Both the position numbers and the translations under genes were made by a program. Shown here one piece after another: positions 8,624-43,209 of a stretch of 64,000 nt of DNA (position 1 is its first letter; every line of letters starts with the position of its first letter). The DNA lies in IMG/VR virus record IMGVR_UViG_3300032770_000005, positions 64,001-128,000 of that record. One strand, 5' to 3'. The notes below the pieces were generated by a model, which did no database searches, had not been told where the DNA came from, and was given only the letters and a program-made list of their open reading frames with translations. The stretch comes from a virus.

Positions 8624-8937
8624 CACGGCGCGCCGGCGCGAGGGCTTCGTACTCGCAACTCGGAGGAGGATAGTGCGAAGCCAGCGCGGGGGCCGAGTGC
8701 CTGCGAGCGAGCGCGTCCGGTCTCGTCGTCGCGAGGCCTGCGCGGGGGCCTGATGCCTGCGACCGGTCCATCGGAGTCTCCTTTTGCTGTTGTGCGAGGT
8801 CGCAGGGCCAGCGCGGGGGCCTTGCGCTCGCGACACAATGAACCGGACGCTCGTCCGGTAGCCAGCGCAGAGGCTTCATGTCTGCGACCGCATCGCTGGT
8901 AGGCGAAAGGCCAGCGCAGGGGCCGAATGCCTGCGAC
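8624..8937 (+). CRISPR. compact degenerate CRISPR-like mini-array, 6 repeats
   Basis: Repeats at 8624, 8672, 8728, 8799, 8853, 8902; spacers 12, 20, 35, 18, 13 bp. Confidence 0.8.
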
Positions 8938-8963
8938 GCGATCGCCTCGCATGAAGGCTGGCT

Positions 8964-9374
8964 TCAGACGCGGTACGGCGCAGTCCAGACGGCGTAGCAG
9001 CCGTACCCCACGCCGGCTCCGATTAGTCCGCCGGCGATCGGGTTCTTGGTCACGGCGCCGATGATCCCAGCGACCAGGCCGCCCACGCCAGAGGCGAGGC
9101 TGCCGGCATTGATCAAGCTCTGCGTCTGCGTCGTCCACTGCTGGTTGAGCGCACTGTCGGAGCACGCGATGCTCGTCAGCAGCCCCTGGCCGAGCCCGCG
9201 GTACGGGTCGCGCCCGAACAGATAGATGTCGGGCTCGCCGGTCACGTCCGATCCGTACTGGATGTAGCCCGGCATCGGCAGCCCAGGCATGCGCGTACGG
9301 CCCGGCGGCAGCGTCGCGAAGTTGACCTGGCCAGGCACCACGACCTGTCCAAGCGCACGGCGGCGGTAGCTCAT
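8964..9374 (-). CDS. putative virion membrane protein
   Basis: Two Gly-rich TM segments; RALGQ and RGLGQ motifs; leaderless promoter. Confidence 0.7.
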   Translation of the reverse strand: MSYRRRALGQVVVPGQVNFATLPPGRTRMPGLPMPGYIQYGSDVTGEPDIYLFGRDPYRGLGQGLLTSIACSDSALNQQWTTQTQSLINAGSLASGVGGLVAGIIGAVTKNPIAGGLIGAGVGYGCYAVWTAPYRV

Positions 9375-9420
9375 GCAGCGATGGTAGCAGGGGCATGGCG
9401 CTCAGTGTAGGATGGCGGTC

Positions 9421-10182
9421 ATGCTCCAGGGGTACGGCCAAGATCTGCATTCGGGCGCGGGCACGGAATGGGACGAGCTGACCAAGCGCGTCCACTGGCC
9501 GCTCGGCGCCGTGATGACGTCCGCCTACGCCGAGCCGCTTCGAGCGCTGCGGCTGCACGACCCTGTCGAGCAGCGACTCGGGTACGGCGGCTTCGGTGCC
9601 GCGTACCGCGTGCGGCTACGCGGCATCGATAGCGTGCTGAAGCTGACGCGAGACCCGTACGAGGTCATCGCGGCCTGGAACCTGAAGCGCAAGCACACCA
9701 AGCGCGTGGTCCCGGTGTACGAGGTCTGGTCGCTCCCGAAGCTCCAGCAGTACGACCACTGGGCGTCGTGGTGGGTGGTCCATCGTGGCTACCTCGCGCC
9801 GCTGTCGAAGGCCGACCTCGACCTCACCGAGCTGATCTTCGACCTCTGGGACGACGACGACCTCGACCTGAGCGTGCCGCGGCACGGCGAGGTCGGGCGC
9901 AGCATGCGCTCGAAGTGGAAGATCGTGCTCGATCAGGAGACAGATCTGAACGGCCAGGAGAAGGCACGCCTGCTGCTGCTGCTCGACCAGATCGCATTCG
10001 GCATCCGCGAGATGGGCCAGCACGGCATCGACTGGACGGACATCATGCCCGACAACCTGCTCCGGGCTCCCGACGGCGGCATGATGATCGCGGACTTCGG
10101 GTTCGGTCGCCCCAAGAAGGACTCGGACGTCAACCCGCCAGAGCTGACCGTGCAGCTCGCTCGCGAGTACGCTGGTGGCTGA
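9421..10182 (+). CDS. protein kinase-like protein
   Basis: LGYGGFGAAY, VLKLT, TDIMPDNLL, IADFG. Start 9412 or 9421. Confidence 0.85.
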   Translation: MLQGYGQDLHSGAGTEWDELTKRVHWPLGAVMTSAYAEPLRALRLHDPVEQRLGYGGFGAAYRVRLRGIDSVLKLTRDPYEVIAAWNLKRKHTKRVVPVYEVWSLPKLQQYDHWASWWVVHRGYLAPLSKADLDLTELIFDLWDDDDLDLSVPRHGEVGRSMRSKWKIVLDQETDLNGQEKARLLLLLDQIAFGIREMGQHGIDWTDIMPDNLLRAPDGGMMIADFGFGRPKKDSDVNPPELTVQLAREYAGG

Positions 10183-10598
10183 TGCGCTGGGGCGCAGCCG
10201 GCGCTGGGCTACTGCTGGTCGCTTCTGACACGCGCCGAGTTCTGCTGCTGCTGAGGAGCGCGGGCGTCACGGAGCCAGGCACGTGGGGCGTGCCAGGCGG
10301 CCGTCTCGAACCCGGCGAGGCTCCGCTCGATGGCGCCATGCGCGAGGCGGCCGAGGAGATCGACTTCCGCGGCCCGGTCGCGATCGTCGGCAGCTACGTG
10401 TACCGCGAGAGCGGCTTCGAGTTCACGACCTTCGTCGGGATGGTGGAATCGGAGTTCCGACCGCGCCTGAACTGGGAGAGCGATGACGCGCGGTGGTTCA
10501 TGCCGGACGAGTGGCCGGACAATCTTCACTTCGGCGTGCGGCACGTGCTTCAGACCATGCTTATCCGGTTGTCGCCCACGCCAAGTAGACAGAGATAG
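10182..10598 (+). CDS. NUDIX hydrolase, C-terminus displaced by an insertion
   Basis: Nudix box GGRLEPGEAPLDGAMREAAEEI. Confidence 0.9.
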   Translation: MRWGAAGAGLLLVASDTRRVLLLLRSAGVTEPGTWGVPGGRLEPGEAPLDGAMREAAEEIDFRGPVAIVGSYVYRESGFEFTTFVGMVESEFRPRLNWESDDARWFMPDEWPDNLHFGVRHVLQTMLIRLSPTPSRQR

Positions 10599-11040: not shown

Positions 11041-11183
11041 CTTCAGACGAGCCGGCCGGCCGCTGCTGCGCCGGTCCGCGCCTGCGTGTGGTGCAGCGGC
11101 ACCGGCACGATCCCCGCGACGCGGATGATCTGTCGGACGTGCGGGGGGGACTGGCTTCGGCGTCTGAAGAGCAGCTGCGCGAG

Positions 11184-13244
11184 TCAGATTAGGGACAGCT
11201 GACCGGCGGGCGCGGCGACCCTTTTGCCGACCTCTTCGGTTGGCGTCACGCCGAACTCGGGCAGGTAGGGCGAGACGGTCACCTCGTCGACCGTCGCGTC
11301 ATCGGCGTAGGCGTGCGAGTAGAACCACAGCTCTTGCGCGGCGCGAGTCACCGCGACGTACAGCAGCCTGCGCTCGTCGGTCGGATTGCCCCAGGGCACG
11401 GGCCAGATCTTGCTCGTCATGCCGGGCATGTACACGACCTGCCACTCGGCGCCCTTCACGCGGTGCACGGTGCTGATGGTCACCGCGTTGCGTGAGGCCG
11501 CCGCACGACGCTGCGCGACGTGTAGCTCGTCGACGGTGTCGAGCAGCTCGGCGAGCGTGTTGAACGCGCTCATGAAGTCGACGACGCGGTCGAAGTTCAT
11601 GCCGGCGTCGACGTCGGGCTCGGCCTCGCTGGCACTCGCGATCCAGCGCCCGAAGTCGGTCACCTTGCAGATCTTCTCGAAGAGCTGCCGCGGCGTGGCG
11701 TTCTTCGCGAGCGACGTGCGCCAGTCGCGCACCTTCCACATGAAGTCGTGAGCGTTGCCCGTGTACCGGCGATCGTGGACGACGGACAGCCCCTCCATCA
11801 GGTCGATCCAGTCGAAGCCGTTGGTGGTCTCCTGAGGAGCAGCCTTCGTCACGGCGTCGGTGAACACGCGTCCGAGATAGCGCGTGGGCGACAGGATGGC
11901 CTCGGTGAAGTCGCTGTGGTCTGCCCGGTTCGCGATCACGCGCATGTACGCGAGGACGACCTTGGTCGCCTTGGCCGCGAAGAAGCTAGCGCCGGCAGCG
12001 ACGCGGCACGGGATCTTGGCCTTGAGCAGCTCCAGCTCGATCGGAGCGCTCTGAGCGTTGACGCGAAGGAGGATCGCCTGATCGCGCCACTCGATGCCGG
12101 ACTCGTGGTGCGCGTTGATGTTGCGCGCCAGATCGACCGCCTCGGCCGACGGAGCGTCATGCACGCGATAGCCCAGGAAGCCGACGTCCGATCGTGTGCC
12201 GATCATCTTCATCGGCAGGCGTGCGCTGAGCGGGATGCCCGCGAGCGCGATGTTGCCGCTCTCGATGATCTTGCTGGCGCTCCGGAAGTTGTGCTCCATG
12301 TACACGACGCGGACGTTCGGGCGCTTGGCGAACGCGAGGAAGTGCTCGGGGCGAGCGCCGCGAAAGCTGTAGATGCACTGGCCTGGGTCGCCGACGATCG
12401 TCAGGTTGCGCGTGCGTCGAGCGAGCGCGTCCACGATGCGCCACTGCGCTTCGCAGAGGTCCTGCGCCTCGTCGACGACGACGTAGTCGAACTGCTCCTG
12501 CCAGCGAGCGAGCAGGCCAGGATCGCGGTCGAACGCGCGCACCGACTCGACGAGCAGATCGTCGAAGCCCACGAACCGCGCCCGCGTCGCGTTGTCGTGG
12601 AGCAGCACGCCCTGCGTGTCGCGTACCGTCTCGGCAGCGAAGAAGATGGCGATCAGGTCGTCGGGATGCTGCGCGCAGTCACGCTTCGCTCGGATCACCG
12701 CCTCCGCCGCGTCGAGCAGCTGCGGCGCGGTGAGTCCGAGCAGCCGCTGGTCGACGACCTCGTCGGTCACGAGCATGTCGTTCTTCACTCGCGACGAGAA
12801 GCGTCGGACCACGTCGAGGTCGAAGGTCCCCTGCCGGATGCCGAGCGTGTTGACCGCCTCGCGGATCGCGCGGTTCTGGAGGCTGCCGTTCTTGTCGAGC
12901 GTGAACCCCCTGGCACCCGACGTATCGGACCAGATCGAATGCGCGAGCGAATGGAGCGTGCGCGCGACGGTGACGTCGCCCTTGAGGCCGAGACGCTTCT
13001 TGAGCTTGCGGTTGAGCTGCGTGGCCGCGTCGACGTTGAAGGCCAAGAGGCAGATCTTGTCCAGCGGGACGCCGCTCTGCGCGAGCCGCGCCGTGCGCTC
13101 GATGAGCGTCGTGGACTTGCCGCTGCCGGCGACGGCGCCGACGAGCATGAGCCCGAGGTTGTGCTCGATCACGACCTGCTGCGCCGGCGTGAACGTGGGT
13201 CCCGCCGCCGGCGCCTCGGCCTTCTTCTTCCGCTTCGCACTCAC
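11184..13244 (-). CDS. uvrD: UvrD/Rep/PcrA-family SF1 helicase
   Basis: AVAGSGKST, VVVDEAQD, VGDPGQCIYSFRGA, NFRS, TVHRVKGAEW, ERRLLYVAVTRA. Confidence 0.95.
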   Translation of the reverse strand: MSAKRKKKAEAPAAGPTFTPAQQVVIEHNLGLMLVGAVAGSGKSTTLIERTARLAQSGVPLDKICLLAFNVDAATQLNRKLKKRLGLKGDVTVARTLHSLAHSIWSDTSGARGFTLDKNGSLQNRAIREAVNTLGIRQGTFDLDVVRRFSSRVKNDMLVTDEVVDQRLLGLTAPQLLDAAEAVIRAKRDCAQHPDDLIAIFFAAETVRDTQGVLLHDNATRARFVGFDDLLVESVRAFDRDPGLLARWQEQFDYVVVDEAQDLCEAQWRIVDALARRTRNLTIVGDPGQCIYSFRGARPEHFLAFAKRPNVRVVYMEHNFRSASKIIESGNIALAGIPLSARLPMKMIGTRSDVGFLGYRVHDAPSAEAVDLARNINAHHESGIEWRDQAILLRVNAQSAPIELELLKAKIPCRVAAGASFFAAKATKVVLAYMRVIANRADHSDFTEAILSPTRYLGRVFTDAVTKAAPQETTNGFDWIDLMEGLSVVHDRRYTGNAHDFMWKVRDWRTSLAKNATPRQLFEKICKVTDFGRWIASASEAEPDVDAGMNFDRVVDFMSAFNTLAELLDTVDELHVAQRRAAASRNAVTISTVHRVKGAEWQVVYMPGMTSKIWPVPWGNPTDERRLLYVAVTRAAQELWFYSHAYADDATVDEVTVSPYLPEFGVTPTEEVGKRVAAPAGQLSLI

Positions 13245-15251: not shown

Positions 15252-15426
15252 GCCGGCCTCCGTGCCCAAGATTGCCGACCTGTACCGCATCACGATCTGT
15301 CCGACAAGTTCTTTCGACATACCCGTCCACAAAAAGTGACGCGCCTTGCGGACAGCCATTGCGGAGCCCGACGGAGGCGCGTACGTTCGTCTGCGTAAAC
15401 CGACTGTTCCAGTGAGGAGGCCCGCG

Positions 15427-15834
15427 ATGTCCGATTCGATCCCGCTGCACGAGAAGCTCTACGAGGCGTGCGCGCGTGCGGCACACGAGGTGAACCGCGC
15501 CTACTGCCGCTCGCTCGGCGACGACTCGCAGCCGGCGTGGGAAAACGCGCCCGAGTGGCAGAAGACGAGCGCTCGCAAGGGCGTGGAGGGCGCGCTAGCC
15601 GGCAACACGCCCGAGCAGTCGCACGAGTCCTGGCTCGCAGAAAAGCGAGCGACCGGATGGAGGTACGGCCCCGTCAAGAACCCGGACACGAAAGAGCATC
15701 CGTGCTTCGTGCCCTATGCGGAACTTCCGCCCGCTCAGCAGACGAAGGACGCGCTGTACCTCGCGACGGTGCGCGCGACCGCGCTCGCGTTCGAGGCTGG
15801 TCTTGCGGCGCAGGCGGCCCTTCGGCTGGAGTAA
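15427..15834 (+). CDS. RyR-domain phage protein
   Basis: AAHEVNRAYC, SHESWLAEK..GWRYG, HPCFVPYAELP. Confidence 0.9.
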   Translation: MSDSIPLHEKLYEACARAAHEVNRAYCRSLGDDSQPAWENAPEWQKTSARKGVEGALAGNTPEQSHESWLAEKRATGWRYGPVKNPDTKEHPCFVPYAELPPAQQTKDALYLATVRATALAFEAGLAAQAALRLE

Positions 15835-15945: not shown

Positions 15946-16108
15946 GTCGCGAGCACGAGGCCCCCGCGCTGGCCAGACGCGCGCCGCGCCGGGCGTCACG
16001 TAGTCGACGTGTCGCGAGTACCAAGCCCTCGCGCTGGCTTCCGACCACGAGAGACGGGTCCACTACGTCCTCGACGCGAGCACGAAGCCCTCGCGCTGGC
16101 TTCGCCCC
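15946..16108 (-). CRISPR. degenerate CRISPR-like mini-array, 3 repeats plus a fragment at 15892
   Basis: Reverse-oriented repeats at 15946, 16011, 16073. Confidence 0.7.
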
Positions 16109-16654: not shown

Positions 16655-17392
16655 ATGGGCGAAGAGAAGAAGAATCCCGACCTCGGCAGCGACGTGCGCG
16701 GGCTCGTGCAGGCCGTGCTCGACGATCGCCGTCTGCAAGACCTCCATCATCACGCGGTAGCTGCGGGCGTGCACGACGGGCGTGGCGACCAACGGCTCCG
16801 CAAGACGGAGAGCGCTCGCGTCAATGCGCTCCTGTGGGAGTTTGGCTTCGTCTCGGGCCTCGCGATCCTCGACGAGCATGACTCCGCGCGACTGCCCGAC
16901 CGCCTTCTCGCTCTTCTCGACATCGAGCTGCCGACGTGGCGCGACCGTGCCTGGGGCCAGCTGCTCGCGACGCATGTCGCTGGCGCGCAGCAGTTCGTGT
17001 TCTGGGTCGGGTCGGTCGACGTCATCATCGGCGACCTGCTTCCGCCGGAACCGTGGGAGCGCGCCGTGTGGCTCACGCGTGCCGCCGTCTATCGCGGCGA
17101 GGTGCGGCCGGAGCTGGGGCGCCGACTCTGGGAGGCGTGCACGCGCGAACCGCAGGGCGCGGGCGGGTCGCAAGAACTCGCTCGCTGTGCGGAGCTGGAG
17201 ATCGAACGCGCCAAGCTGGCCGCGCAGCTGGACGCGCTGCGCAAGGGCCGCAAGGCGATCGAAGCCGCGCTTGCTCTACTGCCTCAAGCCATGGTGAAGG
17301 TCTGGGAGACGTATCTGGGCGTCGCCGCCGCCGTGGATTGGGGCGCGAGCCCGGAGGCGAGCGGCACGCCCGACATCGAAGGCAAGCCGTGA
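16655..17392 (+). CDS. hypothetical protein, paralog of 17850-18839
   Basis: LDIELPTWR..AWG..ATH..EPWERAVW..RPELGRRLW, then a coiled coil. Confidence 0.7.
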   Translation: MGEEKKNPDLGSDVRGLVQAVLDDRRLQDLHHHAVAAGVHDGRGDQRLRKTESARVNALLWEFGFVSGLAILDEHDSARLPDRLLALLDIELPTWRDRAWGQLLATHVAGAQQFVFWVGSVDVIIGDLLPPEPWERAVWLTRAAVYRGEVRPELGRRLWEACTREPQGAGGSQELARCAELEIERAKLAAQLDALRKGRKAIEAALALLPQAMVKVWETYLGVAAAVDWGASPEASGTPDIEGKP

Positions 17393-17835
17393 CGCGAGAG
17401 AAGAAGGCGCCGAAGATCGGCGACGGAGGGGCGGACTGCACTTGCGACGGATGCGTCGCCGCGTGCAAGCACAAGCCCGGCTGGCTCGCGCCGGGGGACG
17501 CGGAGAAGATCGCGGCGCACCTCGACGTCCCGGTCGAGCGCCTGTTCCGCGAGAGGCTCGCGATCGACTGGTGGGTCGGCGGGGTCGACGGTGACGAGGA
17601 CGTGCTCGTCCTCTCGCCGGTCGCGGTGGGGCGCGAGCCCGGAGGCGAGTACGGCGAGGACCCCGGCGGCTGGTGCACGTTCCTCGTGAACGACCGCTGT
17701 TCGATCCACGCCGTGAAGCCGCGGGAGTGCCGCCTCGTCGGCCATCCGACGCCGCCAGATCTGCACCGGGAGATGGCGCGCATGTGGGAGACGGCGCAGG
17801 ACCAGATCGTCGAGCTGCGGAAGAACGCTCGCTAG
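17389..17835 (+). CDS. YkgJ-like cysteine-cluster (Zn/Fe-chelating) protein
   Basis: CTCDGCVAAC and CTFL..DRCSIHAVKPRECR. Confidence 0.85.
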   Translation: MTREKKAPKIGDGGADCTCDGCVAACKHKPGWLAPGDAEKIAAHLDVPVERLFRERLAIDWWVGGVDGDEDVLVLSPVAVGREPGGEYGEDPGGWCTFLVNDRCSIHAVKPRECRLVGHPTPPDLHREMARMWETAQDQIVELRKNAR

Positions 17836-17849
17836 AGGAGAGGCTGAAC

Positions 17850-18839
17850 ATGGACGAGCAGAAGAACACGTACGACGATGACTGCCCGCAGGCTCGCGTG
17901 GCCAAGGATGGCGTGCCCATCCGGGTCGACCTCGACCTCGTGTTCCATCGACTCGACATCGAGTTTCCTCGGTGGCGTACATGCGGATGGGGAGAAACGA
18001 TTGCGACGCACACCGACGAGCGCGGAGCGATCGTGTTCTACGTGGCTTCGCCACGCCTCCACGACTACATCTACAATCCTCCGCCAGACGAGCCCTGGGA
18101 GCGCGCCGTGTGGCTGGTGCGCACCAGGGTTCCGGTCCCGCCGCCTCTTCGGCCTGGGCTCAGCTCCTCCCTATGGGACACGTGGAGGTTCTCGGGTGCG
18201 CGCCAGCGCGAAGGACCGGCGCCGCAGCACGAAGCCTCCGTCCAGAACCGATCGGATGTGGGGCGACGAGAGCCGATGGACGAGCTGCCGGCGGGCGAGC
18301 CGGTGATGCTCGGCGGTGGACTGCTCGCCATTCTCGACGCCGAGCTGCCGACGTGGCGAACGCGTGCGTGGGGCGAGACGTTTGCGACGCACGCTCATGA
18401 GCGCGGGACGGCCGTGTTCTACGTGAACACGGCCGCTCAGAGCATCGAGCCGTGGGTGCGCGCCGGCATCGCGCCGGCCGAGCCGTGGGTGCGCGCGGCG
18501 TGGGTGGTACTCAGGAACGCGTACTTCCTGCCTTCGCTTCGGCCGGAGCTTGGGCGCCGGCTCTGGGACGCGCTCCATACGCGCGAGCCCGACGAGCGGG
18601 AGTTCACTCGCGACGAACTGCTGGCGCAGCTGAAGGAGGAGGGCGCGAGGAGCGCGGATCGACTGCGCGCCTGTGTCGGATGGGAGAACGAATGCCTCAA
18701 GCTGACGCGCAAGTGTGCCGCGCTGGAGGCGGAACTGGACGCCATGCGCGCACGGTGCGGTAAGGCGGAAGCGGCGATCGCTGCGCTGTATCGGGCGTAT
18801 CAGCAGGTCCACGACGTGGGCGACGCTCTGGGCCTCTGA
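17850..18839 (+). CDS. hypothetical protein with a duplicated domain
   Basis: Two copies of the LDxExPxWR/WGET.ATH/EPW domain. Confidence 0.7.
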   Translation: MDEQKNTYDDDCPQARVAKDGVPIRVDLDLVFHRLDIEFPRWRTCGWGETIATHTDERGAIVFYVASPRLHDYIYNPPPDEPWERAVWLVRTRVPVPPPLRPGLSSSLWDTWRFSGARQREGPAPQHEASVQNRSDVGRREPMDELPAGEPVMLGGGLLAILDAELPTWRTRAWGETFATHAHERGTAVFYVNTAAQSIEPWVRAGIAPAEPWVRAAWVVLRNAYFLPSLRPELGRRLWDALHTREPDEREFTRDELLAQLKEEGARSADRLRACVGWENECLKLTRKCAALEAELDAMRARCGKAEAAIAALYRAYQQVHDVGDALGL

Positions 18840-19225: not shown

Positions 19226-19743
19226 TGACGGCCAGCGAGGCGCGGGGCCAGGAGAAAACGATGGAACACGACGAGCAAGAGCTGAGGAAGATGTGGGTGG
19301 CGCGTGCGCGCGACAGGTCGATGACCATGGAGACGCTGCCGGCCTTCCTGAAGGAGCTGGCGGACTTCGAGCACGACTACGGCTCGATCTGCGTCGCCAT
19401 CGGCGCCGCGGCGCTCGCGGCCGCTCACGTCATCGACCGCAGTCCTCGCGGCGGCATCACCGGGTTCCAGGCCGGCGCGGTCGGGTGGGAGTTCCTCCGC
19501 GGCTGGCACCAGTGGCCGGAGGACGGTGTGGGGCACCAGTTGATCGACTTCGATCACCTGCTCTATCCGCAGTACGAGGCGACCTTCACCACGATGTCAC
19601 GCGACGTGTTCGGACGGCTGCAAGAAGCCGCACGCAAGCATCTCGCGGAAGCGGACGCGCACATGCACCCCAACGTGCGCTCGCACCTGCAAAAGATCGT
19701 CAAGGGCCGGGTTCCGTTCGGCCTTGGGCTCAGGGAGCGATGA
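19222..19743 (+). CDS. conserved phage hypothetical protein
   Basis: HDYGSICVA, GITGFQAG, LLYPQYE; coupled ORF. Confidence 0.7.
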   Translation: MMTASEARGQEKTMEHDEQELRKMWVARARDRSMTMETLPAFLKELADFEHDYGSICVAIGAAALAAAHVIDRSPRGGITGFQAGAVGWEFLRGWHQWPEDGVGHQLIDFDHLLYPQYEATFTTMSRDVFGRLQEAARKHLAEADAHMHPNVRSHLQKIVKGRVPFGLGLRER

Positions 19744-19766
19744 TGGGCACGCGGATGGAAGGAGCA

Positions 19767-20423
19767 ATGATGATGGGCACGCAGATGGGGTTCGCTCGGG
19801 CGCTCGTGCTGCTGAAGGACGGGGGTCGCGTTGCCAGGTCCGGATGGGGCAGCAGCATGTGGAGCATGTGGCTCGTGTTGGTACGTGATCGTTATGGAGG
19901 GCCTGGCTTCTCCTACGAGGTTACGTGCAATCATCAGACGCTTGCGGCGGATGATCTGCCACTGCGTCCGCTTCCGTGGATCGGCATGAAGACCGCGGAC
20001 AATGGCTTGGTGCCATGGGCATGTTCGTCGGCCGACCTCCTCGCTGAGGACTGGGAACAGGTGGGCGAGACATACGCGGAAGTGCTTGAGCGCAGCGGTC
20101 GCGATCACGCCGCGGCGCTCGGGCGCGACCGGGCCGAACCTGCGCCGGCCGCCGCGGTGGGTGAGACGGCAGCGAGGCCCGGTGCGTCCCTTCAGGAACC
20201 GGCGCCCGATATCCTGTCGATGCGGGACGCCGAGTACGGCGACGGTGTCGCGGCGAAGATCGAGCGTCAGGTGGCCGGCGGCGACCCGAAGCTGGCCCGC
20301 TACGCAGCTGGCTACGCGCGAGCGGTGCGACCGCTGCTCCTGCGCCTGGCGGAGTCAGAGCGCAGCCGCCTTGCGCTCGCCGAACGACTGTTGACGGCCG
20401 AGCGAAAGGGCGGCGCACGGTGA
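19767..20423 (+). CDS. DUF2829/Tad2-like protein with C-terminal extension
   Basis: GFARAL..LK.GGRVARSGW, PWIGMKTADN..VPW..S..DLLAEDWE. Confidence 0.85.
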   Translation: MMMGTQMGFARALVLLKDGGRVARSGWGSSMWSMWLVLVRDRYGGPGFSYEVTCNHQTLAADDLPLRPLPWIGMKTADNGLVPWACSSADLLAEDWEQVGETYAEVLERSGRDHAAALGRDRAEPAPAAAVGETAARPGASLQEPAPDILSMRDAEYGDGVAAKIERQVAGGDPKLARYAAGYARAVRPLLLRLAESERSRLALAERLLTAERKGGAR

Positions 20424-21208: not shown

Positions 21209-22423
21209 ATGACCGCTCGTACCCTCATCGACCGTGACGCGGTGGTCGCGAGGCTTCGACAGCGTGCCGAGGCCGCCGAGCGCGCAGGCCGGCACCAGTC
21301 CGGGCCACACATGATGCCGGAGCACTGGCTCCGCGAAGAGGCCGCCGCTATCGAGCGCGAGCCAGCCGCGTCGGTGCCACCAGCGAGCATCCCGGAGCGC
21401 GAGCGAGCGCTGGTGCGGGAGATGTTCAACGAAGTAGTCGAATTCTGCGCGGAGCTGTACGGCGCGTCGCCAGACGGCTTGAGCGACGAAGATGTTGCGC
21501 GAATCGTCGCTCGGGTGGACGCCACACATCCGCACTCCGAACCAAGGCCAGCGCGGGGGCTTGGTGCCTGCGACGGAGCATCTCCGGCCGCCGCGCCGAA
21601 GGTGTCGTGCAGCAAGTGCCTCGGAACGCGGCGCGTGCTCGACTGTCGAGGTAACGACGACGATCGGTGCCCATGGTGCGCCGACCCGAAGCCCGTGCCG
21701 AGCGGGTTGCGGGAGTGGTTCTCGCGCGTGCTGGACGCTGCTGCCGAGCGTGGGCTCGTCGTCTCGTCGGATGAGCGTGGCATCACCGAGGCGCTCGCCA
21801 GCGTCGGCCTGCCGCCCACCGAGCCCGTGCCGAGCGCGTTGGAGTCGGCGTGCGCGTTCTTGCAAGAGCACAGGCAACAGGTGCGCGAGATCGCATCTGC
21901 CGGCGACGGCACATCGTGGTCCGCTGAGGTTGGTGCGACCAGCTACGGACGGGCGCCGACGCTCACGGGATGCCTGTTCGCCACGGCGCGCTCCCTCGGT
22001 TGGATGCCACCCACGGAACCCAGCCAGAACCCGTTGGAGCGCGCGATGGTGCGTCACGACGCCATCGCACATCAGGCTGACGTGCTCATCGCTCGGTACG
22101 ATGAGCGAGAGCGGTGCGCGAAGGCGTGCGATGAAGCGGCCGACAGGCGCGAAGGAACGTCGCAGGATTTCTGCGTCTCCGCTCTGCGCAATCTCGCCGC
22201 CTGCATCCGCTCGCTCGGTCCCGCCGCGCCGGCGCCGCGCGCGGAAGAGGTGGCGAACATCATGACGAAGCTGATCGTGAAGAAGCTGCGCGAAGAAGTG
22301 CGCGTGCTCCGCGAGCACGAGCGCACGACGCCGAACGAACACCATGCGCTCAAGGCATGTGGTGCAGCGGATGCGTTCGAAGAACTGGCCGCCCGCATCG
22401 AGCGCGAAGGGAGCTGGCGATGA
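21209..22423 (+). CDS. mosaic hypothetical protein containing an in-frame CRISPR-type repeat
   Basis: CSKC..CPWC finger; modules shared with neighbouring genes. Confidence 0.7.
   Translation: MTARTLIDRDAVVARLRQRAEAAERAGRHQSGPHMMPEHWLREEAAAIEREPAASVPPASIPERERALVREMFNEVVEFCAELYGASPDGLSDEDVARIVARVDATHPHSEPRPARGLGACDGASPAAAPKVSCSKCLGTRRVLDCRGNDDDRCPWCADPKPVPSGLREWFSRVLDAAAERGLVVSSDERGITEALASVGLPPTEPVPSALESACAFLQEHRQQVREIASAGDGTSWSAEVGATSYGRAPTLTGCLFATARSLGWMPPTEPSQNPLERAMVRHDAIAHQADVLIARYDERERCAKACDEAADRREGTSQDFCVSALRNLAACIRSLGPAAPAPRAEEVANIMTKLIVKKLREEVRVLREHERTTPNEHHALKACGAADAFEELAARIEREGSWR
21539..21574 (+). repeat. solitary CRISPR-type repeat inside a CDS
   Basis: AGGCCAGCGCGGGGGCTTGGTGCCTGCGAC. 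Confidence 0.8.
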
Positions 22424-26923: not shown

Positions 26924-27480
26924 CCGGGCGACGAGGCGACCCGTCGTACACGCCGCCGACCGACGAGGAGCGACGCCTCGGCTACTACCTCGACTGCGTC
27001 AGCTGCGGCCGCCCGTGGGCGCTGCGCAGCTGCGTGCCGCACTTGCATCGCTGCCGCTCCTGCGCTCGCTCGTGGTGGCGCGACTACCGCCAGGCGGCGC
27101 GCCAAGGGCTGCCGCGGCCGAGCCTGCTAGGGCAGATCGCGCCGCATCCCTTCGCCTCGAAGGCGCTGAACCGCACGGTCGATCTGAACGCTCCGGGGCT
27201 CCTCGACCTGGTCGAGCAGGACCCGAAGTTCGCGAAGGAGCTGGACGCGTACATCGCCAGCCTGCGGCACGCCGACAGCAGCAAGCCGCCGCTGCGCGGC
27301 GCGGCCCTGAGCCTATCGGGACGGCCGCGTCGCCGCGCCGTGCGCGTGCCGCTCGATGAAGACCCTACGCCCGAGCCGCCCATCTCCCGAGCGGCAGCCA
27401 AGGAGGTCGAGCGCCTGGTCGACGAGGTGCTCGTCGGCGACGTGATCGATGCCGGAGCGGTGCCGCGTCGGCGCGCGTGA
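26920..27480 (+). CDS. hypothetical Zn-finger protein
   Basis: CVSCG...CRSC. Confidence 0.6.
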   Translation: MTGRRGDPSYTPPTDEERRLGYYLDCVSCGRPWALRSCVPHLHRCRSCARSWWRDYRQAARQGLPRPSLLGQIAPHPFASKALNRTVDLNAPGLLDLVEQDPKFAKELDAYIASLRHADSSKPPLRGAALSLSGRPRRRAVRVPLDEDPTPEPPISRAAAKEVERLVDEVLVGDVIDAGAVPRRRA

Positions 27481-27705
27481 GAGGCCTGCGCGGGGGCATG
27501 GTGCTCGCGACGCGCTCGCGACGAACCACGAGAGCCGGCGACGCGCCCATCCCGAAGCCAGCGCGGGGGCTTCGTGCCTGCGACTCGTGACGGAAGTTTC
27601 TCGTGGCTGACCTGTTGCATTCTGTCGAAAGGCCAGCGCGGAGGCTCTCATGTCCGCGACATGCAGTTCCACGACTGAGCCAGCGCGAGGGCTTGTGCTC
27701 GCGAC
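27476..27705 (+). CRISPR. degenerate CRISPR-like mini-array, 4 repeats
   Basis: Repeats ending at 27511, 27584, 27660, 27705. Confidence 0.8.
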
Positions 27706-31925: not shown

Positions 31926-32232
31926 CAGCATGCGCCAGCGCGAGGGCCTGGTGCTCGCGACCAGGCCTGAAGAGCCCTGCGGTCACGAAGCCTGCGCAGG
32001 GGTCTCATGCCTGCGACGAGGAGTGCCATGCCATCCATCATCTGCGGGACCTGCTTCTGGTTGCAGGGCCAGCGCGGGGGTCTCATACCTGCAACGAGAG
32101 CATCGAACGATGGAACGCTCGGAGGCGTGAACGTCCGAGGCCGGCGCGAGGGCCTGGTGCCTGCGACCTGTTCTTCCGCTGGTGGAGAACCGCATCGTCG
32201 CGAGCACCAAGCCCCCGCGCCGGCCTTTCGAC
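31926..32232. CRISPR. CRISPR-like mini-array, 4 forward repeats and 1 inverted repeat at a strand-convergence point
   Basis: Forward at 31926, 31982, 32060, 32132; reverse at 32197. Confidence 0.8.
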
Positions 32233-32253: not shown

Positions 32254-33027
32254 TCAGCGCGTCATGACCTCTGCGGTCTTGGCCAACGCGCCGTCGATGT
32301 CGTCGAGCAGCTTCGCGAGGTGCTCTCGTTTCGACCGCAGGGCGCGTAGCTCCGCATCAACCCGACCATCCGCCGCCAACAGCGCCAGGGCACGGCGCAC
32401 GCTGTACGGTTCGTACATGAGCGTCGCGGGCTCGACGTCGAGCGCCAGCGCCAGCGCATCGAACGCATCGGCCTTCCTGAGCCGCTCTTGGACCTCAGCC
32501 ATCTTCACGCGTACTCGCGCTTCGATCTCCGCTTCTCGCCGACGCGCCTCCTCCTCATCGATCTCCGCCTGCGGCCGCGGCTGGTGCGCTTGCTCCAGGG
32601 CGCGGCGCAAGAGGTTGATGACGATCTCCCGCGGCAGCGGCTCGGCCTTTCGTTTCGCCGCCTGCACCGTGACCTTCAGGCCGCGAGGGCCGAGCACCAT
32701 GAGCCCCCAGCCATCGGGCAGCTCGTCGCGGCGCACGACCTCGTCGCTGCCGGCTACGATCCACCAGCGCTCGCAGTAGATGGCCATCGCCTCGGCTTTA
32801 GCGGGGTCCGCCAGCTCGCGCAGCCAGTCGCTCCGGCTCGCCTTGATCTCGAACCCCTGCATCCCGTGCCCACGGCTCTTCCAGATGCCGAGCGCGACCG
32901 CGTCGCAGCTGCGCGTCGCGTAGAAGCTGGTCCGGTCACGCACCTCTTCCAGGAAGGCCCAGCTCGGCCACGAGTACTTCTTCCGTAGCGCGTCGACGAT
33001 CGGCGAGTTGCTGATGTAGTACTTCAT
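32254..33027 (-). CDS. MmcB-like PD-(D/E)xK nuclease-fold protein
   Basis: CDAVAL...GFEIKASRSDWLREL...ELPDGWGL. Confidence 0.8.
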   Translation of the reverse strand: MKYYISNSPIVDALRKKYSWPSWAFLEEVRDRTSFYATRSCDAVALGIWKSRGHGMQGFEIKASRSDWLRELADPAKAEAMAIYCERWWIVAGSDEVVRRDELPDGWGLMVLGPRGLKVTVQAAKRKAEPLPREIVINLLRRALEQAHQPRPQAEIDEEEARRREAEIEARVRVKMAEVQERLRKADAFDALALALDVEPATLMYEPYSVRRALALLAADGRVDAELRALRSKREHLAKLLDDIDGALAKTAEVMTR

Positions 33028-36399: not shown

Positions 36400-36489
36400 G
36401 GCTCAAGAGGCGAAAAACACGCCAACAGGTCGACGACGATGTCACGGTCTTTCAAGGCGCCGCGCAGCCTCTCCCGCCATCGGGCACTC

Positions 36490-36525
36490 GTCGCAGGCAC
36501 CAAGCCCACGCGCTGGCCTTGGCGA
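36490..36525 (-). repeat. solitary CRISPR-type repeat
   Basis: GTCGCAGGCACCAAGCCCACGCGCTGGCCT on the + strand. Confidence 0.75.
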
Positions 36526-36591
36526 ACAACACGACCCCTGATCTTCGGTCACCTCGGCGCGGTCTTCCAAGGCGCCGCACGGCCTCTTCTC

Positions 36592-37110
36592 CTATGCGCG
36601 GTAGCGGCGTGTGCCGCCTTGGAGCAGCTGCTGCAACGCAGGATCGTCCGAACGGGCGATGATCTTGCGCTCACGCGCATCCCGGTTGCGCTTCATGCGA
36701 CCGCAGATACCGGCCCGGAGATCGCCCACCGCCTCACGCGCACGGACCGTCGCCTCTGACGTGATCACGACCTCGTCGGCCGGCGGTCGGTTCGCCATCT
36801 TCGTGAAGTCGTCGACATCGACCAGCGTGAGGATGCACGGCGAGAACGCATACGAGACCACCCAGGTGCGCGCATGGTTCCTCAGTGGCAACGCATTCGC
36901 GTCGCCGTAGACGGAGCCCTGGCCCTCGTGCGGCCCAAGCGCCTCGGCGAGCCAGGCCATCTCGGCGACGACCTGCTCTTCGCCACACGCCCGAAGGCTC
37001 ACGAGCACGATGGTGCCGTGCTCGAAGAGCCACCACCGTACATTGGCCGCGCGACTCGGTGCGGCGCTGAAGACCTCCTGCGCGATCGAGATCGCCTTGC
37101 TGCTGTCCAT
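36592..37110 (-). CDS. hypothetical protein
   Basis: GAGGAGA RBS; WWLFEHGTIV. Confidence 0.7.
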   Translation of the reverse strand: MDSSKAISIAQEVFSAAPSRAANVRWWLFEHGTIVLVSLRACGEEQVVAEMAWLAEALGPHEGQGSVYGDANALPLRNHARTWVVSYAFSPCILTLVDVDDFTKMANRPPADEVVITSEATVRAREAVGDLRAGICGRMKRNRDARERKIIARSDDPALQQLLQGGTRRYRA

Positions 37111-39742: not shown

Positions 39743-39760
39743 GGGCCACGTCACGCGTTT

Positions 39761-40022
39761 TTGCGCGAGCCAGCGCGAGGGCTTGGTGCTCGCGACAACG
39801 ATCAGGTCGCACAAAAGCCCTCGCCGGGGCTTCGTGCCGGCGACGTCGAGGAGGTTGGCGCGTTGATCGCGAAGGGCCGCTCAGTGCGAGGCCAGCGCGG
39901 GGGCCGTTGTGCCTGCGACGATTCCCTCGGCGCGCTCTCGGCGTCAAGCCAACGCAGGGGCCTGGTGCCTGCGACGCGCGGCGTCTCCGCGAGGGCCTGT
40001 GCGAGGGCTTTGTGCTCGCGAC
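39761..40022 (+). CRISPR. compact CRISPR-like mini-array, 5 repeats
   Basis: Repeats ending at 39796, 39844, 39919, 39975, 40022. Confidence 0.75.
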
Positions 40023-40081: not shown

Positions 40082-40366
40082 ATGCTGATCGTCCACTATG
40101 GAGCCCCCAGCCCGGACACCGAATACCCGCGCATCCCGCCCATTCTGACCGACCCGCGGCCAAACACCGTGACGCCGGGACCAGCGACGCCGGAGCCCGT
40201 GGCGCCGAAGCCGGACCAGATGCTCGCGGCGCTGACGAAGCGGCGCGTGCGGGTCGCGGTGAGGATCGACGAGGCCGGCCGCGTGCACGTGCGGGTCGAC
40301 GGTCCATTCGGTCTGGCCGCCGACGTCTCGGGCGAGAAGTCGATCACGATCGAGACCGAGGTCTGA
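40082..40366 (+). CDS. hypothetical protein between two mini-arrays
   Basis: GGGAG RBS; good codon use. Confidence 0.7.
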   Translation: MLIVHYGAPSPDTEYPRIPPILTDPRPNTVTPGPATPEPVAPKPDQMLAALTKRRVRVAVRIDEAGRVHVRVDGPFGLAADVSGEKSITIETEV

Positions 40367-40552
40367 GCCGTGGCCCGCGCAGGGGCCTCGTGCCTGCGAC
40401 CATACCGAGCACCGGCACTCGTGCAGCCGCAGGGTCGGTTGCGAAGCCTGCGCAGGGGCCAGGTGCCTGCGACAAGTTGTACGACACGTACTTCCCGCGC
40501 GAAGTCGGGACGTGTTGTTGCGAAGCCGGCGCGAGGGCTTCGTGCTCGCGAC
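40365..40552 (+). CRISPR. CRISPR-like mini-array, 3 repeats
   Basis: Repeats at 40365, 40438, 40517; spacers 37 and 43 bp. Confidence 0.8.
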
Positions 40553-40622: not shown

Positions 40623-41363
40623 ATGACGTACGCGTGTGGAGCGGTGCTCGATCCGGTCTGCGACCCCTGGACCGGCGAGATGTACCCGAACCCCTGCGAG
40701 GCCGAGGCCGCCGGTGTCTTCGACTGGCAGCGCTCGTGCGACGGCGGCTTCGACGTCGACGTCTGGGGCCCCGGAACTATCGACTGGGGCTGGTCAGGCG
40801 CACCGGGGCTCGTCCGACGGCAGCGGCGGCGGCGGCGGCACGGCGGAGGACGCCCTGGCCGCCCAGGCGGCAAGCAGGCGACGCTGACGCCCGGTACGCT
40901 GACGCCCGGTACGCCGATCGGCGGACCGAAGACCGGCTCAGGCCGCGGCTTGCAGCTCTCGGCCGGGCCTGCGTCTGCTCCGCGGTCTGCTGGCCCACTG
41001 GCGCCGCTGTTCGAGGGCTCCGACCTCACGCCGAGCGCAGCGCTCGCGCCCGCGCCGATGCGGCTCTCTGCGACGCGTGGTGCCGCGCCCATGGCGCCCG
41101 GTTCCAAGCCGATGAGCTTCAGCGGTCTACGCCGCAGCGCCGGCACTCTGCGCGGACCGCTGTCGGCGGGGGCGCGGTACGCCAGCGCCAGTCGCAGCCT
41201 CCGGCCGGCCTCGCTCGTCAGTCGTGGCGGGCGCGTCGCCGCCCGCGGCATGCGCGGGCTCGGCCAGAACACGACCACGACGCTCGCGCTCGGTGGTGCC
41301 GGCATCGGAACGTTCGCGGCGCTGTGGCTCGCCGCCATCTACCTCTTCGGCCGGAACCGGTGA
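40623..41363 (+). CDS. Kazal-like N-terminus, Arg-rich linker, C-terminal TM protein
   Basis: C...DPVCD..TGEMYPNPCEAEAAGV; MRGLGQ before the TM segment. Confidence 0.65.
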   Translation: MTYACGAVLDPVCDPWTGEMYPNPCEAEAAGVFDWQRSCDGGFDVDVWGPGTIDWGWSGAPGLVRRQRRRRRHGGGRPGRPGGKQATLTPGTLTPGTPIGGPKTGSGRGLQLSAGPASAPRSAGPLAPLFEGSDLTPSAALAPAPMRLSATRGAAPMAPGSKPMSFSGLRRSAGTLRGPLSAGARYASASRSLRPASLVSRGGRVAARGMRGLGQNTTTTLALGGAGIGTFAALWLAAIYLFGRNR

Positions 41364-41385
41364 GCCAGGCCAGGAGGCGCTCGTC

Positions 41386-41790
41386 ATGACCATCAACAGG
41401 CTCGCGGTCCGACCGGCGGCAGCGTCCCTCACGAAAGAGCTGCTGGAGCAGCTCGACGACGGCCTGCTGATCGCGTGGCGCATCTCGAACAGCCGGCTCG
41501 ACTGGTCGATCATGAACCGGCCTCCGTCGATCCAGGACCACGCGCTCGCGACGGCGCTCGTGTTCGCGATGCCGAACTACAAGCTCGTCATCGACAAGAA
41601 GATCATGCGGCCCGAGAAGATCCTGCGCAGCGATGGCCGCGAGGTCACGTACAACGAGTACATCGACGTCGACTTCACGGATGGACGGATCCGCTCGTCG
41701 CGCAAGCGGGACATGACTCAGAAAGTGCTGGCTGCCATCGTCCACCAGCTCATGCAGAGCACAGCGCCGATGCCTGGCGTTCGCGGCTGA
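41386..41790 (+). CDS. hypothetical protein adjacent to the main array
   Basis: AGGAGG RBS; no Cas motif recognised. Confidence 0.75.
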   Translation: MTINRLAVRPAAASLTKELLEQLDDGLLIAWRISNSRLDWSIMNRPPSIQDHALATALVFAMPNYKLVIDKKIMRPEKILRSDGREVTYNEYIDVDFTDGRIRSSRKRDMTQKVLAAIVHQLMQSTAPMPGVRG

Positions 41791-41823
41791 TTCGGCCGAG
41801 CTGCGTGCCGGCATCGACGTGAA

Positions 41824-43209
41824 GTCGCGGGCATTCGGCCCCCACGCTGGCCTGACGGCGACGGCGATGACCCACTGCTGCGCCATGTCGCAGGCACGAT
41901 GCCCCCACGCTGGCCCTGCAACGCGCACAACGCGCAGTACAAGCCGATGGCGCTCGGCGTGGCTCGGCGTGTCGCGAGCACCAAGCCCCCGCGCTGGCCT
42001 CGCCTGCATGACGATCTGCACCGAGTGCTTCTGCGTCCATCCGTCGCGGGCACTCGGCCCCCGCGCTGGCCTCGTAACAAGGGCTCTAGCTGACCGGTCA
42101 GCAGGACGACGCGCAGTCGCAGGCACGATGCCCCCGCGCTGGCTCTTCGAGACGCCGTCTCGGCCTTCCGGTCGCAGGCACCAGGCCCCTGCGCAGGCCT
42201 CGCAACAACTACACGCGAACCGAGCGCCTTCGCATATGCGTCGCGAGCACAAGCCCTCGCGCTGGCTCAGTCGTGGAACTGCATGTCGCGGACACCAGAG
42301 CCTCCGCGCAGGCTCGATCGTGGTCGCTCGGCTTGAGCGCGAGCCGGGCCTTCTCGCTCACTTCGCGAGCACCAAGCCCCCGCGCTGGCTTCGCGACTAC
42401 GTGGATGCGGCCGCTTCCCCTTGGTCCAGCGCCAGGTGCAGGCACGAGGCCCCTGCGCAGGCCTCGCGACGTCCTCGTCATGAACACCAATCTCGCGGAC
42501 ACGCAGTCGCAGGCACACGGCCCCCGCGCTGGCCTCGCGACGCATATGATCGGCGCTGGTACGCGTGCGGCGACCTCCAGTCGCAGGCACTCGGCCCCCG
42601 CGCTGGCCTCGCGACGCTCCGGCGCGCCGCGTGAGCATCACGACGTCGCGCTTCATGTCGCGAGCACTCGGCCCCCGCGCTGGCCTCGCGACCGGCAGAC
42701 CCGGGCGATGGTAGTGCTGCACGATGACGTCGCAGGCACACGGCCCCCGCGCTGGCCCCGCGACCAATGAACGGTGCCTTGTGGGCGGCCACGGGTCCCA
42801 GAGTCGCAGGCACACGGCCCCCGCGCTGGCCTCGCGACCCGCACAGCAGCGCGTTGAACGCGCCGCCCGCGAGAAAGTCGCAGGCACACGGCCCCCGCGC
42901 TGGCCTCGCGACGGCACTGCTCCGGCGCATGGGCTTCTGCGAGGAGCGCGGTCGCAGGCACACGGCCCCCGCGCTGGCCTCGCGACCGCGTCGCTGGCCA
43001 CCCGACACGCATGTATGTGCCTCCCGGTCGCAGGCACACGGCCCCCGCGCTGGCCTCGCGACGCACGTCGTGCACGGTCGGCGTTGTCGTAGTTCTCCTG
43101 TCGCAGGCACCAGGCCCCCGCGCCGGCCTCGCGACTAGAGGATCTGCGTGCGAGGAACGTTGTCGAAGAAGGAGTCGCAGGCACACGGCCCCCGCGCTGG
43201 CCTCGCGAC
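41824..43209 (-). CRISPR. main CRISPR array, 20 repeats of 36 bp
   Basis: Ten near-identical repeats at 42506, 42580, 42657, 42729, 42803, 42877, 42951, 43027, 43100, 43174 with 36-41 bp unique spacers; ten degenerate repeats from 41824 to 42435. Strand inferred from the decay gradient. Confidence 0.95.

Follow-up and report, generated by a model that had tools for sequence, protein, structure and literature searches.

Repeat loci in the window

The window analysed here (64,000 nucleotides, positions 64,001 to 128,000 of the 152,857-bp IMG/VR virus record IMGVR_UViG_3300032770_000005) carries a 36-bp CRISPR-type repeat, which an initial annotation had counted at about 48 copies, distributed over a 20-repeat array, six mini-arrays and two solitary units. 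This description agrees with the results of a covariance model of the repeat (R1). When scanned over the whole record, the model identified 88 non-redundant copies grouped in 13 loci, with 50 copies falling inside the window at the places already described (Table 1). A pattern search of the whole genome gave 66 matches versus 0 in a reversed control, and a fuzzy search allowing up to 10 substitutions gave 67 copies. All 88 R1 copies are intergenic according to gene calls made with a home-made codon model, and over the genome three of the arrays are large, accompanied by many mini-arrays and by solitary units. The mixed mini-array at locus I contributes a single copy (at 36490) to the 50 in the window. 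Rfam and tRNA scans of the window returned no match, the repeat had no exact match in IMG/VR, and it was absent from the viral contigs and bacterial genomes searched, among which no host with the repeat was identified.

Table 1. Repeat loci and associated features, in window coordinates.
Feature	Position	Strand	Units	Context
Locus D	8627..8937	+	6 leaderless units; starts 8627, 8672, 8728, 8799, 8853, 8902	Starts 8 nt past stop of upstream + gene 8340-8618; inter-scaffold guides 19-42 nt
Locus E	15946..16108	-	3 units	RNA sense on minus strand
Locus F	21539..21574	+	Solitary unit	In 1.2-kb stretch without a confident gene
Locus G	27476..27705	+	4 units	First unit overlaps stop of upstream gene 26920-27480
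Locus H, plus side	31934..32167	+	4 units	From 43 nt past stop of + gene 30454-31890; convergent gene junction
Locus H, minus side	32197..32232	-	1 unit	21 nt past stop of - gene 32254-33027
Locus I	36441..36590	-	Mixed mini-array: family-A-like 36556-36590, family-B 36490-36525, family-A-like 36441-36473	Downstream of - gene 36592-37110
Locus J	39762..40022	+	5 units	Between divergent genes; precedes + gene 40082-40366 in the same orientation
Locus K	40365..40552	+	3 units	First unit overlaps stop of gene 40082-40366; next gene from 40623
Locus L (main array)	41824..43209	-	22 units: 20 clear, 2 degenerate
Leader of array L	43210..43410	-		Frameshifted cas12m-B 3'-end remnant plus 19-nt junction

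The 13 loci fall into two classes: two arrays that bear a leader (L in the window, and C beside the effector gene cas12m-B described below) and 11 leaderless loci. Arrays L and C have the features of canonical arrays, namely a shared leader, identical leader-proximal repeats and spacers that resemble coding DNA. The mini-loci D-K lack a leader and have heterogeneous repeats without the 5' 7 nt, together with guides of 16-50 nt. Within array L, the spacers measure 35-41 nt, and the repeats are near-identical at the leader-proximal end (43.2 kb) and degenerate at the distal end (41.8 kb). The last two units of locus G (27624-27705), with a 16-17-nt guide, are duplicated within array L at 42240-42321; this two-unit cassette is ~80 bp in size. 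Loci J, K and L are separated from one another by genes.

Phage-encoded Cas12m effectors

The initial annotation had reported no cas gene in view and had noted that arrays of large phages can use a distant or host effector. It holds true that the window contains no intact TNB/RuvC or Cas1 ORF, but a 3' remnant of cas12m lies directly beside array L (Table 1), and the effector itself, neither missing nor supplied by a host, is phage-encoded, as two Cas12m paralogues outside the window. One of them, cas12m-B (genome 57349-59214, 621 aa), lies 4.8 kb to the left of the window. Array C, which consists of 14 co-oriented copies of the repeat found in the window, begins 19 nt past the cas12m-B stop. 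The paralogue cas12m-A (genome 8790-10550) is accompanied by a second repeat family and is 46% identical to cas12m-B. Both contain the Cas12f1-like TNB domain PF07282 (Pfam; E = 2e-9 and 4e-9), and no other TNB ORF is present in the whole genome. For the 621-aa protein, the best match among solved relatives was a full-length one to Cas12m 23vw_A (PDB; E = 1.5e-67), with Cas12m2 (8hio) matching at 3e-27, and residues D313, E469 and D555 as well as three zinc-finger cysteines are conserved in 37 homologues. Cas1 (PF01867), the one model by which the absence of adaptation genes was judged, was not found in six frames of the whole genome. The homologous effector, the downstream array and the scaffold helix described below identify the system as type V-M. 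The units have the same sequence as the repeats of arrays adjoining cas12m, and a REP/BIME-like intergenic repeat was rejected as their identity.

The intact D-E-D RuvC triad may permit DNA cutting; Cas12m proteins with D-E-D, H-D-D and N-D-D RuvC sites have been found to bind without cutting (PMC11013384). The ~200-nt leader common to arrays L and C is derived from the 3' end of cas12m, and that of L is ~83% identical to genome positions 59044-59233, which precede array C. Judged from these sequences, array L evidently arose through duplication of a module consisting of the cas12m tail plus its array.

A single-sequence search of IMG/VR returned no close relatives of the effector; relatives surfaced only when an alignment was used as the query (56 IMG/VR loci). 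Nearly all of these have an array immediately after the gene (~38 with arrays), and in 8 of the ~38 array-bearing relatives distant repeat copies were present within 10 kb. Of two complete phages, one (G404) combines an 8-repeat array with five solitary scaffold units, and the other (G405) carries 38 copies in four loci. The same scattering is seen in Cas12m phages that are unrelated and whose repeats differ in sequence.

Transcriptional context, spacers and scaffold structure

In nine loci the first unit is placed -5 to +66 nt relative to the stop codon of a gene with the same orientation, and 12 of the 13 orientation groups agree with their neighbouring genes, the sole exception being locus E, which is antisense to both flanking + genes. 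At locus H, unit orientation switches precisely where the genes converge, at 32.2 kb. Locus F lies downstream of a Tad2-like gene, and 61 nt separate it from the gene that begins at 21635; locus I is followed by a terminator-like hairpin and T-run at 36435-36420. With the exception of this site, a scan for sigma-70 promoters and intrinsic terminators from 27 to 44.5 kb gave nothing above shuffled sequences. Across the structural-gene blocks, 45 intergenic gaps reach 40 nt or more, and none holds a unit. Outside the window, a family-A unit stands between cas12m-A and the next gene, the mRNA start of which would be its 'spacer'. Genes adjoining the loci mostly had no match in Pfam or PHROGs. These data support the earlier suggestion of a CRISPR-type repeat serving one RNA-guided effector family and spread over transcription units, with the units oriented along local transcription.

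Inter-scaffold distances left at least 16 nt in 69 of 71 cases (mode 44-45), a gap that fits the 17-nt mature guide and heteroduplex of Cas12m2 and PmCas12m (PMC10442227; bioRxiv 10.64898/2026.03.26.714355). In array A, outside the window, two pairs of scaffolds stand back to back, separated by just 1 and 9 nt, which is too short to hold a guide. The spacers in arrays C and L are statistically like coding DNA and unlike intergenic DNA (P<0.001), those of the degenerate arrays A and B (both outside the window) are not coding-like, and the mini-loci of the window have spacers of no more than intermediate composition, leaning towards coding-like (n=10).

Comparison of the spacers with possible targets, which the initial annotation had suggested together with a search for a common PAM, matched no targets and revealed no shared PAM flank. 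BLAST of all spacers against the phage genome gave nothing above 16 nt, and when the first 17 nt behind each scaffold were scanned by Hamming distance, 15 matches were obtained at 2 mismatches versus 12 in the reversed control, with no common 5' flank. Self-targeting or autoregulation was rejected, the self-matches being at control level. Protospacers were found neither in GenBank phages nor in IMG/VR and JGI metagenome contigs (searched for three spacers with exact wobble-degenerate patterns, which diverged targets would escape), and the loci of 91 relatives yielded none that was convincing. Among ~400 genomes from the phylum of a MAG with a Cas12m relative, a single in-frame protospacer match (33/38) was found in a nucleotidyltransferase-like gene, flanked 5' by TTT, and is not strong enough to identify a target or a host; the family and order of that genome, and the other arrays, gave no further protospacer.

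These observations bear on whether the leaderless units work chiefly in cis on the mRNA, with Cas12m cleavage separating cistrons, setting 3' ends or stabilising transcripts in the manner of a Cas6/Csy4-type insulator, and with the downstream sequence not serving as a guide. Cas12m does cleave RNA on both sides of the scaffold plus 17 nt (bioRxiv 10.64898/2026.03.26.714355), and such a role would suit units that lie between cistrons or at operon ends, right after stops and without a leader, as it would the family-A unit behind cas12m-A, the non-coding-like spacers of arrays A and B and the failure to find spacer targets. Cleavage, however, needs only one unit, yet in most loci 3-6 units are present, separated by stretches of 16 nt or more that differ from one another. 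Moreover, one 16-17-nt guide is identical in loci G and L, the mini-locus spacers lean coding-like, and the many gaps in the structural-gene blocks are free of units. A mainly cis-acting role is therefore considered unlikely.

The structure of the repeat was assessed over its copies. On the functional strand, which reads GTCGCGAGGCC...TGCCTGCGAC, columns 14-19 form a helix with columns 29-34 that is 98.6% paired and covarying, followed by A35 and C36. Pair 17-31 occurs as GU (23), GC (21) and AU (14) with no mismatches, and pair 18-30 as GC (38), GU (11) and AU (7); the G-U pairs fix the strand of the RNA. Columns 8-11 and 20-23, a candidate second stem, pair at 95% with hardly any variation. 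In the mini-loci, conservation is 0.61 over columns 1-7 versus 0.87 over columns 8-36, and the dispersed copies retain exactly the 29 nt that correspond to the ordered crRNA scaffold of Cas12m2. In the Cas12m2 structure, positions -36 to -30 are disordered and the 3' strand of the helix (-8 to -3) is followed by A(-2) and C(-1) (PMC10442227); the 5' helix strand is shifted here by 1 nt.

Substitutions fall in the loop, in the 7 nt at the 5' end and at those stem positions that covary. The uniform spread along the repeat that the initial annotation had associated with neutral decay or a REP-like element was thus not observed, and this non-uniformity makes both unlikely. The dispersed copies could still be neutral relics of older arrays that were split by gene insertions or recombined and are now decaying, a view that draws on the heterogeneous repeats, the irregular spacing with some scaffolds back to back, the cassette duplicated between G and L, the origin of array L from a duplicated module and the genes interposed between J, K and L. 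We regard this as very unlikely, since the helix has been retained through exchange of G-C, G-U and A-U pairs, its most variable pair being without a mismatch, and most of the change falls within the loop and within the dispensable 5' 7 nt; in addition, orientation tracks transcription, and other Cas12m phages, unrelated and with repeats of a different sequence, show the same pattern.

A dispersed type V-M system and its relation to known systems

The explanation that best accommodates these data, with a probability of roughly 0.68, is that the repeats belong to a phage-borne type V-M (Cas12m) CRISPR system, the leaderless units of which enter read-through transcripts and are excised as DNA-binding guide crRNAs. 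Read-through transcription would place the units in phage mRNAs, either within the 3' UTR or between cistrons. Since pre-crRNA is processed by the characterised Cas12m proteins themselves, with no need of a tracrRNA (PMC11013384), Cas12m would be expected to excise the units from the carrier mRNA, each giving a crRNA of ~50 nt made up of the scaffold and a ~17-nt guide. As excision necessarily cleaves the carrier, guide release and mRNA processing would be two sides of one event. The resulting ribonucleoproteins would bind PAM-flanked dsDNA of a competitor element or the host and probably block transcription or replication with no cutting. The two leader-bearing arrays may still acquire spacers, and the scattered units would be hard-wired guides. 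Several observations count against this reading: the antisense orientation of locus E, the spacers of arrays A and B that are not coding-like, the intermediate composition of the mini-locus spacers, the two scaffold pairs of array A that leave no space for a guide, the intact D-E-D triad, which may permit DNA cutting, and the absence of a protospacer match.

It is highly improbable that the solitary units are instead RNA anti-CRISPRs or decoys soaking up the Cas12m of a host or rival phage, as raised in the initial annotation: solitary repeat units in phages are known to act as RNA anti-CRISPRs (Racrs; Nature 2023, PMC10651486) and the units here keep the full protein-binding scaffold, but most of them sit in mini-arrays with guide-length spacers, no host with the repeat was found in the genomes searched, and the cognate effector is encoded by the phage beside the same repeat, so that decoys would poison the phage's own system.

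The type V-M reading can be extended, tentatively and with more doubt than confidence, to a hard-wired 'CRISPRi programme'. Units of a 29-nt scaffold and a ~17-nt guide, placed in the 3' UTRs and gaps of early and middle operons, would allow the transcription of each operon to release silencing guides against host or rival genes, the accompanying cuts would shape polycistronic mRNAs, and only the two leader-bearing arrays would be open to new spacers. If the units are active, the virus would be using RNA-guided transcriptional silencing at large scale, tied to its own transcription programme, and the units would provide natural minimal Cas12m cassettes (29-nt scaffold, 16-20-nt guide) and a set of tolerated scaffold variants for compact CRISPRi engineering.

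Several known systems resemble parts of this arrangement. In CreA/CreR and crlRNAs, a Cas effector is turned into a repressor by short guides attached to degenerate, repeat-like units (bioRxiv 10.1101/2024.12.27.630466); the guides of these RNAs match promoters of their own genome, whereas self-matches here do not exceed the control level. Like Racrs, the units are single intergenic copies of a CRISPR repeat in phage DNA with a crRNA-handle fold, but Racrs mimic host repeats in phages without an effector, whereas here the effector is phage-encoded and the units are followed by 3' sequence of guide length. MvCas12m of myxophage MV-1 was presented as the first phage Cas12m in Sept 2026 (bioRxiv 10.64898/2026.09.14.751636). 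Both it and the Cas12m described here are virus-encoded, ~610 aa in length, with an intact D-E-D triad and an adjacent array, and both lack adaptation genes and spacer matches; compared by description, MvCas12m has one array with eight spacers, whereas the present phage has three large arrays plus mini-arrays and solitary units. Cas-Phi (Cas12j) and Cas-lambda of huge phages are small self-processing Cas12 nucleases with one or a few arrays and no adaptation module, thought to act on rivals or the host. By comparison, all tested Cas12m members bind without cutting, and the units here are scattered genome-wide.

The closest likeness is to type V-M of bacteria and plasmids (MmCas12m/Cas12m2, GoCas12m, MsCas12m, PmCas12m), with which the phage system shares a homologous ~600-aa effector containing RuvC and a TNB-type zinc finger, a 36-nt repeat that finishes in ...GAC, pairs as a 6-bp helix up to position -3 and has a dispensable 5' portion, an array that follows the gene directly, and the absence of Cas1. 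It differs from these in residing in a 153-kb virus with two paralogues, each with its own repeat family, in having 88 units at 13 loci, 11 of them leaderless behind phage genes, and in its compensatory repeat diversification and D-E-D RuvC triad. Cas12m is a natural programmable repressor that was described in phages only recently, and then as a single array; to this the present genome adds two paralogous systems with ~90 guide units, a scattering also seen in other complete Cas12m phages, and a split between acquisition-type arrays and leaderless minimal units under RNA-structure constraint.

The repeat family and its Cas12m effectors

The scattered repeats form a single 36-bp family that is present in both orientations. 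A degenerate pattern matched the genome 66 times and its reversed control 0 times, and 67 copies were recovered when up to 10 substitutions were allowed. A covariance model (R1), built from an alignment of those copies in RNA sense and run across the contig, identified 88 non-redundant copies genome-wide and 50 in the window, in agreement with the loci and copy counts reported for the window in the initial annotation. Every copy was intergenic relative to genes predicted with a codon-usage model. Copies were absent from genome 1-36.8 kb and from 107.3-152.9 kb, although 45 gaps between genes in these regions measure 40 nt or more.

The contig also encodes a RuvC-type effector; the initial annotation had recognised no cas gene in the window and proposed looking for one in the contig and in candidate hosts. 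Two Cas12m genes were found, and these are the only TNB-domain frames genome-wide. The product of cas12m-B has a Pfam match to the Cas12f1-like TNB domain and gave a full-length alignment to the solved "CRISPR-associated DNA-binding protein Cas12m" 23vw_A (E=1.5e-67), a further match to Cas12m2 (8hio/8hhl, 3e-27) and a weak alignment with TnpB. Its stop codon lies 19 nt before array C, which carries the same repeat. The second gene, cas12m-A, encodes a protein 46% identical to that of cas12m-B. Three copies of a distinct repeat (family A) follow it; the first two flank a well-scoring gene, so the "spacer" of the first family-A repeat consists of the beginning of that gene. D313, E469, D555 and the zinc-finger cysteines were invariant or nearly so across 37 aligned homologues, which identifies a D-E-D RuvC triad in the phage protein where the aligned Cas12m2 has H-D-D. 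Cas12m proteins with D-E-D, H-D-D or N-D-D triads bind dsDNA beside a T- or C-rich PAM and leave it uncut, and Cas12m processes its own pre-crRNA with no requirement for a tracrRNA (PMC11013384). Assignment of the system to type V-M is secure.

Coordinates of the features discussed, in the whole virus record (genome) or in the window
Feature	Coordinates	Strand	Remarks
cas12m-A	genome 8790-10550		586 aa
cas12m-A with family-A repeats	L009:8790-11246		
Gene nested among family-A repeats	genome 10572-11111		179 aa
Locus A	genome 36858-37898		16 copies, left of window
Locus B	genome 39205-40118		10 copies, left of window
cas12m-B	genome 57349-59214 (L012:3349-5214)	+	621 aa
cas12m-B 3' end plus 19-nt junction	genome 59044-59233		
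Locus C (array C)	genome 59234-60206		14 copies, left of window
Glycosyltransferase	window 1143-2552	+	
UvrD-type helicase	window 11184-13244	-	
RyR-domain protein	window 15412-15834	+	
Paralogous segments	window 16904-18425		three segments
Tad2-like domain (Thoeris anti-defence) protein	window 19740-20423	+	Pfam 7.9e-16; just upstream of solitary unit at 21539
Two-scaffold cassette, one copy	window 27624-27705		
PcfJ-like protein	window 30454-31890	+	
Array L	window 41824-43209	-	main array
Two-scaffold cassette, other copy	window 42240-42321		strand opposite to the first
Spacer with bacterial match	window 42839-42876		
Sequence before array L	window 43210-43410	-	~200 nt
Zinc metallopeptidase	window 43665-44246	-	

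A conserved scaffold and its putative guides

Across the aligned copies, columns 14-19 pair with columns 29-34 in 98.6% of alignment cells, and sliding the partner by 1-3 columns reduced pairing to 29-56%. Pair 17-31 occurs as G-U (23), G-C (21) and A-U (14) with 0 mismatches, pair 18-30 as G-C (38), G-U (11) and A-U (7), and the extra copies found with R1 added G-C to A-U exchanges at pair 19-29. Read on the opposite strand, the frequent G-U pairs would become C-A mismatches, so the functional strand is the one reading GTCGCGAGGCC...TGCCTGCGAC; it runs in the same direction as cas12m-B at array C, and as cas12m in ~38 relatives.

Conservation among the mini-loci was 0.61 in columns 1-7 versus 0.87 in columns 8-36, where variable positions belong to the loop or to covarying pairs. 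Thus the uniform spread of substitutions that the initial annotation associated with neutral decay or a REP-like element is absent. In the cryo-EM structure of Cas12m2, nucleotides -36 to -30 are disordered, and the crRNA has a 6-bp helix whose 3' strand occupies -8 to -3, followed by A(-2)C(-1) before the guide (PMC10442227). Phage columns 8-36 correspond to -29 to -1, with the 3' strand of the helix again at -8 to -3 and then A35 and C36. As the conservation pattern maps onto the Cas12m2 structure, the dispersed copies keep just the part of the repeat that is held by the protein.

The distance available for a guide, taken between a scaffold's end and column 8 of the scaffold that follows, was at least 16 nt in 69 of 71 cases, with a mode of 44-45 nt and a tail of 16-28 nt in the mini-loci; the two short distances (1 and 9 nt) both lie within array A. 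The Cas12m2 heteroduplex is 17 bp (PMC10442227), and trimmed PmCas12m crRNA comprises ~33 nt of repeat and ~17 nt of guide (bioRxiv 10.64898/2026.03.26.714355), so that even the short-period units are long enough for complete guides. One cassette of two scaffolds (~80 bp) is present twice in the window with an identical 16-17-nt guide (ATGCAGTTCCACGACTG), which had no further match in the genome.

Arrays with leaders, leaderless units and the search for spacer targets

Only arrays C and L possess a leader, and the 70 nt upstream of each are nearly identical. The sequence preceding array L shares ~83% identity with the cas12m-B 3' end and its junction. It includes, in frameshifted form, what is left of the last ~60 cas12m codons, with a 1-nt indel and, in the protein alignment, residues 562-608 matching at 66%. 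Array L is therefore a duplicated module of cas12m tail plus array that has lost the gene and kept the leader. In both arrays the repeats are identical close to the leader and degenerate distally, and the spacers resemble coding DNA in their codon and GC3 signature, being indistinguishable from phage coding fragments and different from intergenic DNA (P<0.001). Arrays C and L thus look like spacer-acquiring arrays, in a genome in which no Cas1 was found genome-wide. Spacers of arrays A and B were unlike coding DNA, and those of the window mini-loci were intermediate (n=10).

At nine loci the first unit is positioned -5 to +66 nt relative to the stop codon of a gene running in the same direction, and orientation matches local transcription in 12 of 13 groups. 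Near 32.2 kb, where two genes converge, four units run in one direction and one in the other, each behind its own gene. Locus J precedes the next gene and shares its orientation, locus E is the sole locus antisense to its neighbouring genes, and locus I, at 36.5 kb, is a mini-array that combines both repeat families in A-B-A order, with a hairpin and T-run after it. Taken together, anatomy, covariation and homology suggest, with a probability of roughly two in three, that the scattered units are processed into working guides, which is the best-supported reading. The chief rival holds that the units act mainly in cis, in RNA processing; the two are compatible, since excision of a guide from an mRNA would also cleave that mRNA.

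The spacer search proposed in the initial annotation yielded no target. Matches within the phage genome were not above chance, and no protospacers were found in GenBank phages, in IMG/VR and JGI metagenome contigs (wobble-degenerate exact scans) or in relatives' loci. A single spacer, which reads FLAGGAFNALLC in frame, had an in-frame match at 33/38 positions, flanked 5' by TTT, to a bacterial gene that encodes FFLAGGAFKALLTG there and belongs to a histidine-phosphatase plus nucleotidyltransferase-like ORF. The present phage has no homologue of this gene. The match is a weak lead only, and follow-up searches on it were empty. The 3' end of the repeat (GAC) would occupy the PAM position, which would fit a T/C-rich PAM and avoidance of self-binding.

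Genomic setting and comparison with known systems

The virus record (152,857 bp), of which the window covers bases 64001-128000, is rated complete by CheckV, and GC content is 65-70% along the entire window, where Rfam and tRNA scans gave no match. The same 24-bp tandem repeat occurs in the same orientation at both contig ends (genome 1-428 and the last ~120+ bases), which points to terminally redundant ends or to circle closure through a tandem-repeat tract; the IMG/VR entry gives the topology as linear. Most neighbouring genes other than those tabulated had no Pfam or PHROG match, and neither did any in the minus-strand block from window 48000-64000 on to genome 146 kb, among them ORFs of 819 and 742 aa. 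None of the proteins scanned was recognisable as a terminase, portal or HK97 capsid. A PcfJ-like gene also lies close to cas12m in a 166-kb relative (L015). The three paralogous segments (71-93 nt, 62-79% identical) point to a small family of tandem genes in the + operon that follows locus E.

The protein database held 172 homologues at 37-50% identity, several from contigs of 80-220 kb, and related Cas12m loci were found in IMG/VR (56) and in MAGs spanning many phyla (24). In nearly all relatives a 36-nt-repeat array lies directly 3' of the gene, with repeats ending ...GAGAC or ...GCGAC. In phages without an effector, solitary repeat units are RNA anti-CRISPRs (PMC10651486). A September 2026 preprint describes a myxophage Cas12m with one 8-spacer array, presented as the first in phage, and there too spacer matches are absent (bioRxiv 10.64898/2026.09.14.751636). 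Our literature search turned up no account of leaderless Cas12m units spread over multiple loci. Among complete Cas12m phages, one (G404) has an 8-repeat array and 5 solitary units reduced to the 3' scaffold, and another (G405) has 38 copies at four loci, with G-U/G-C/A-U exchanges as in the present genome. Within 10 kb, 8 of ~38 relatives showed copies lying over 500 bp away from the main array, and the present genome is the extreme of scattering among those compared.
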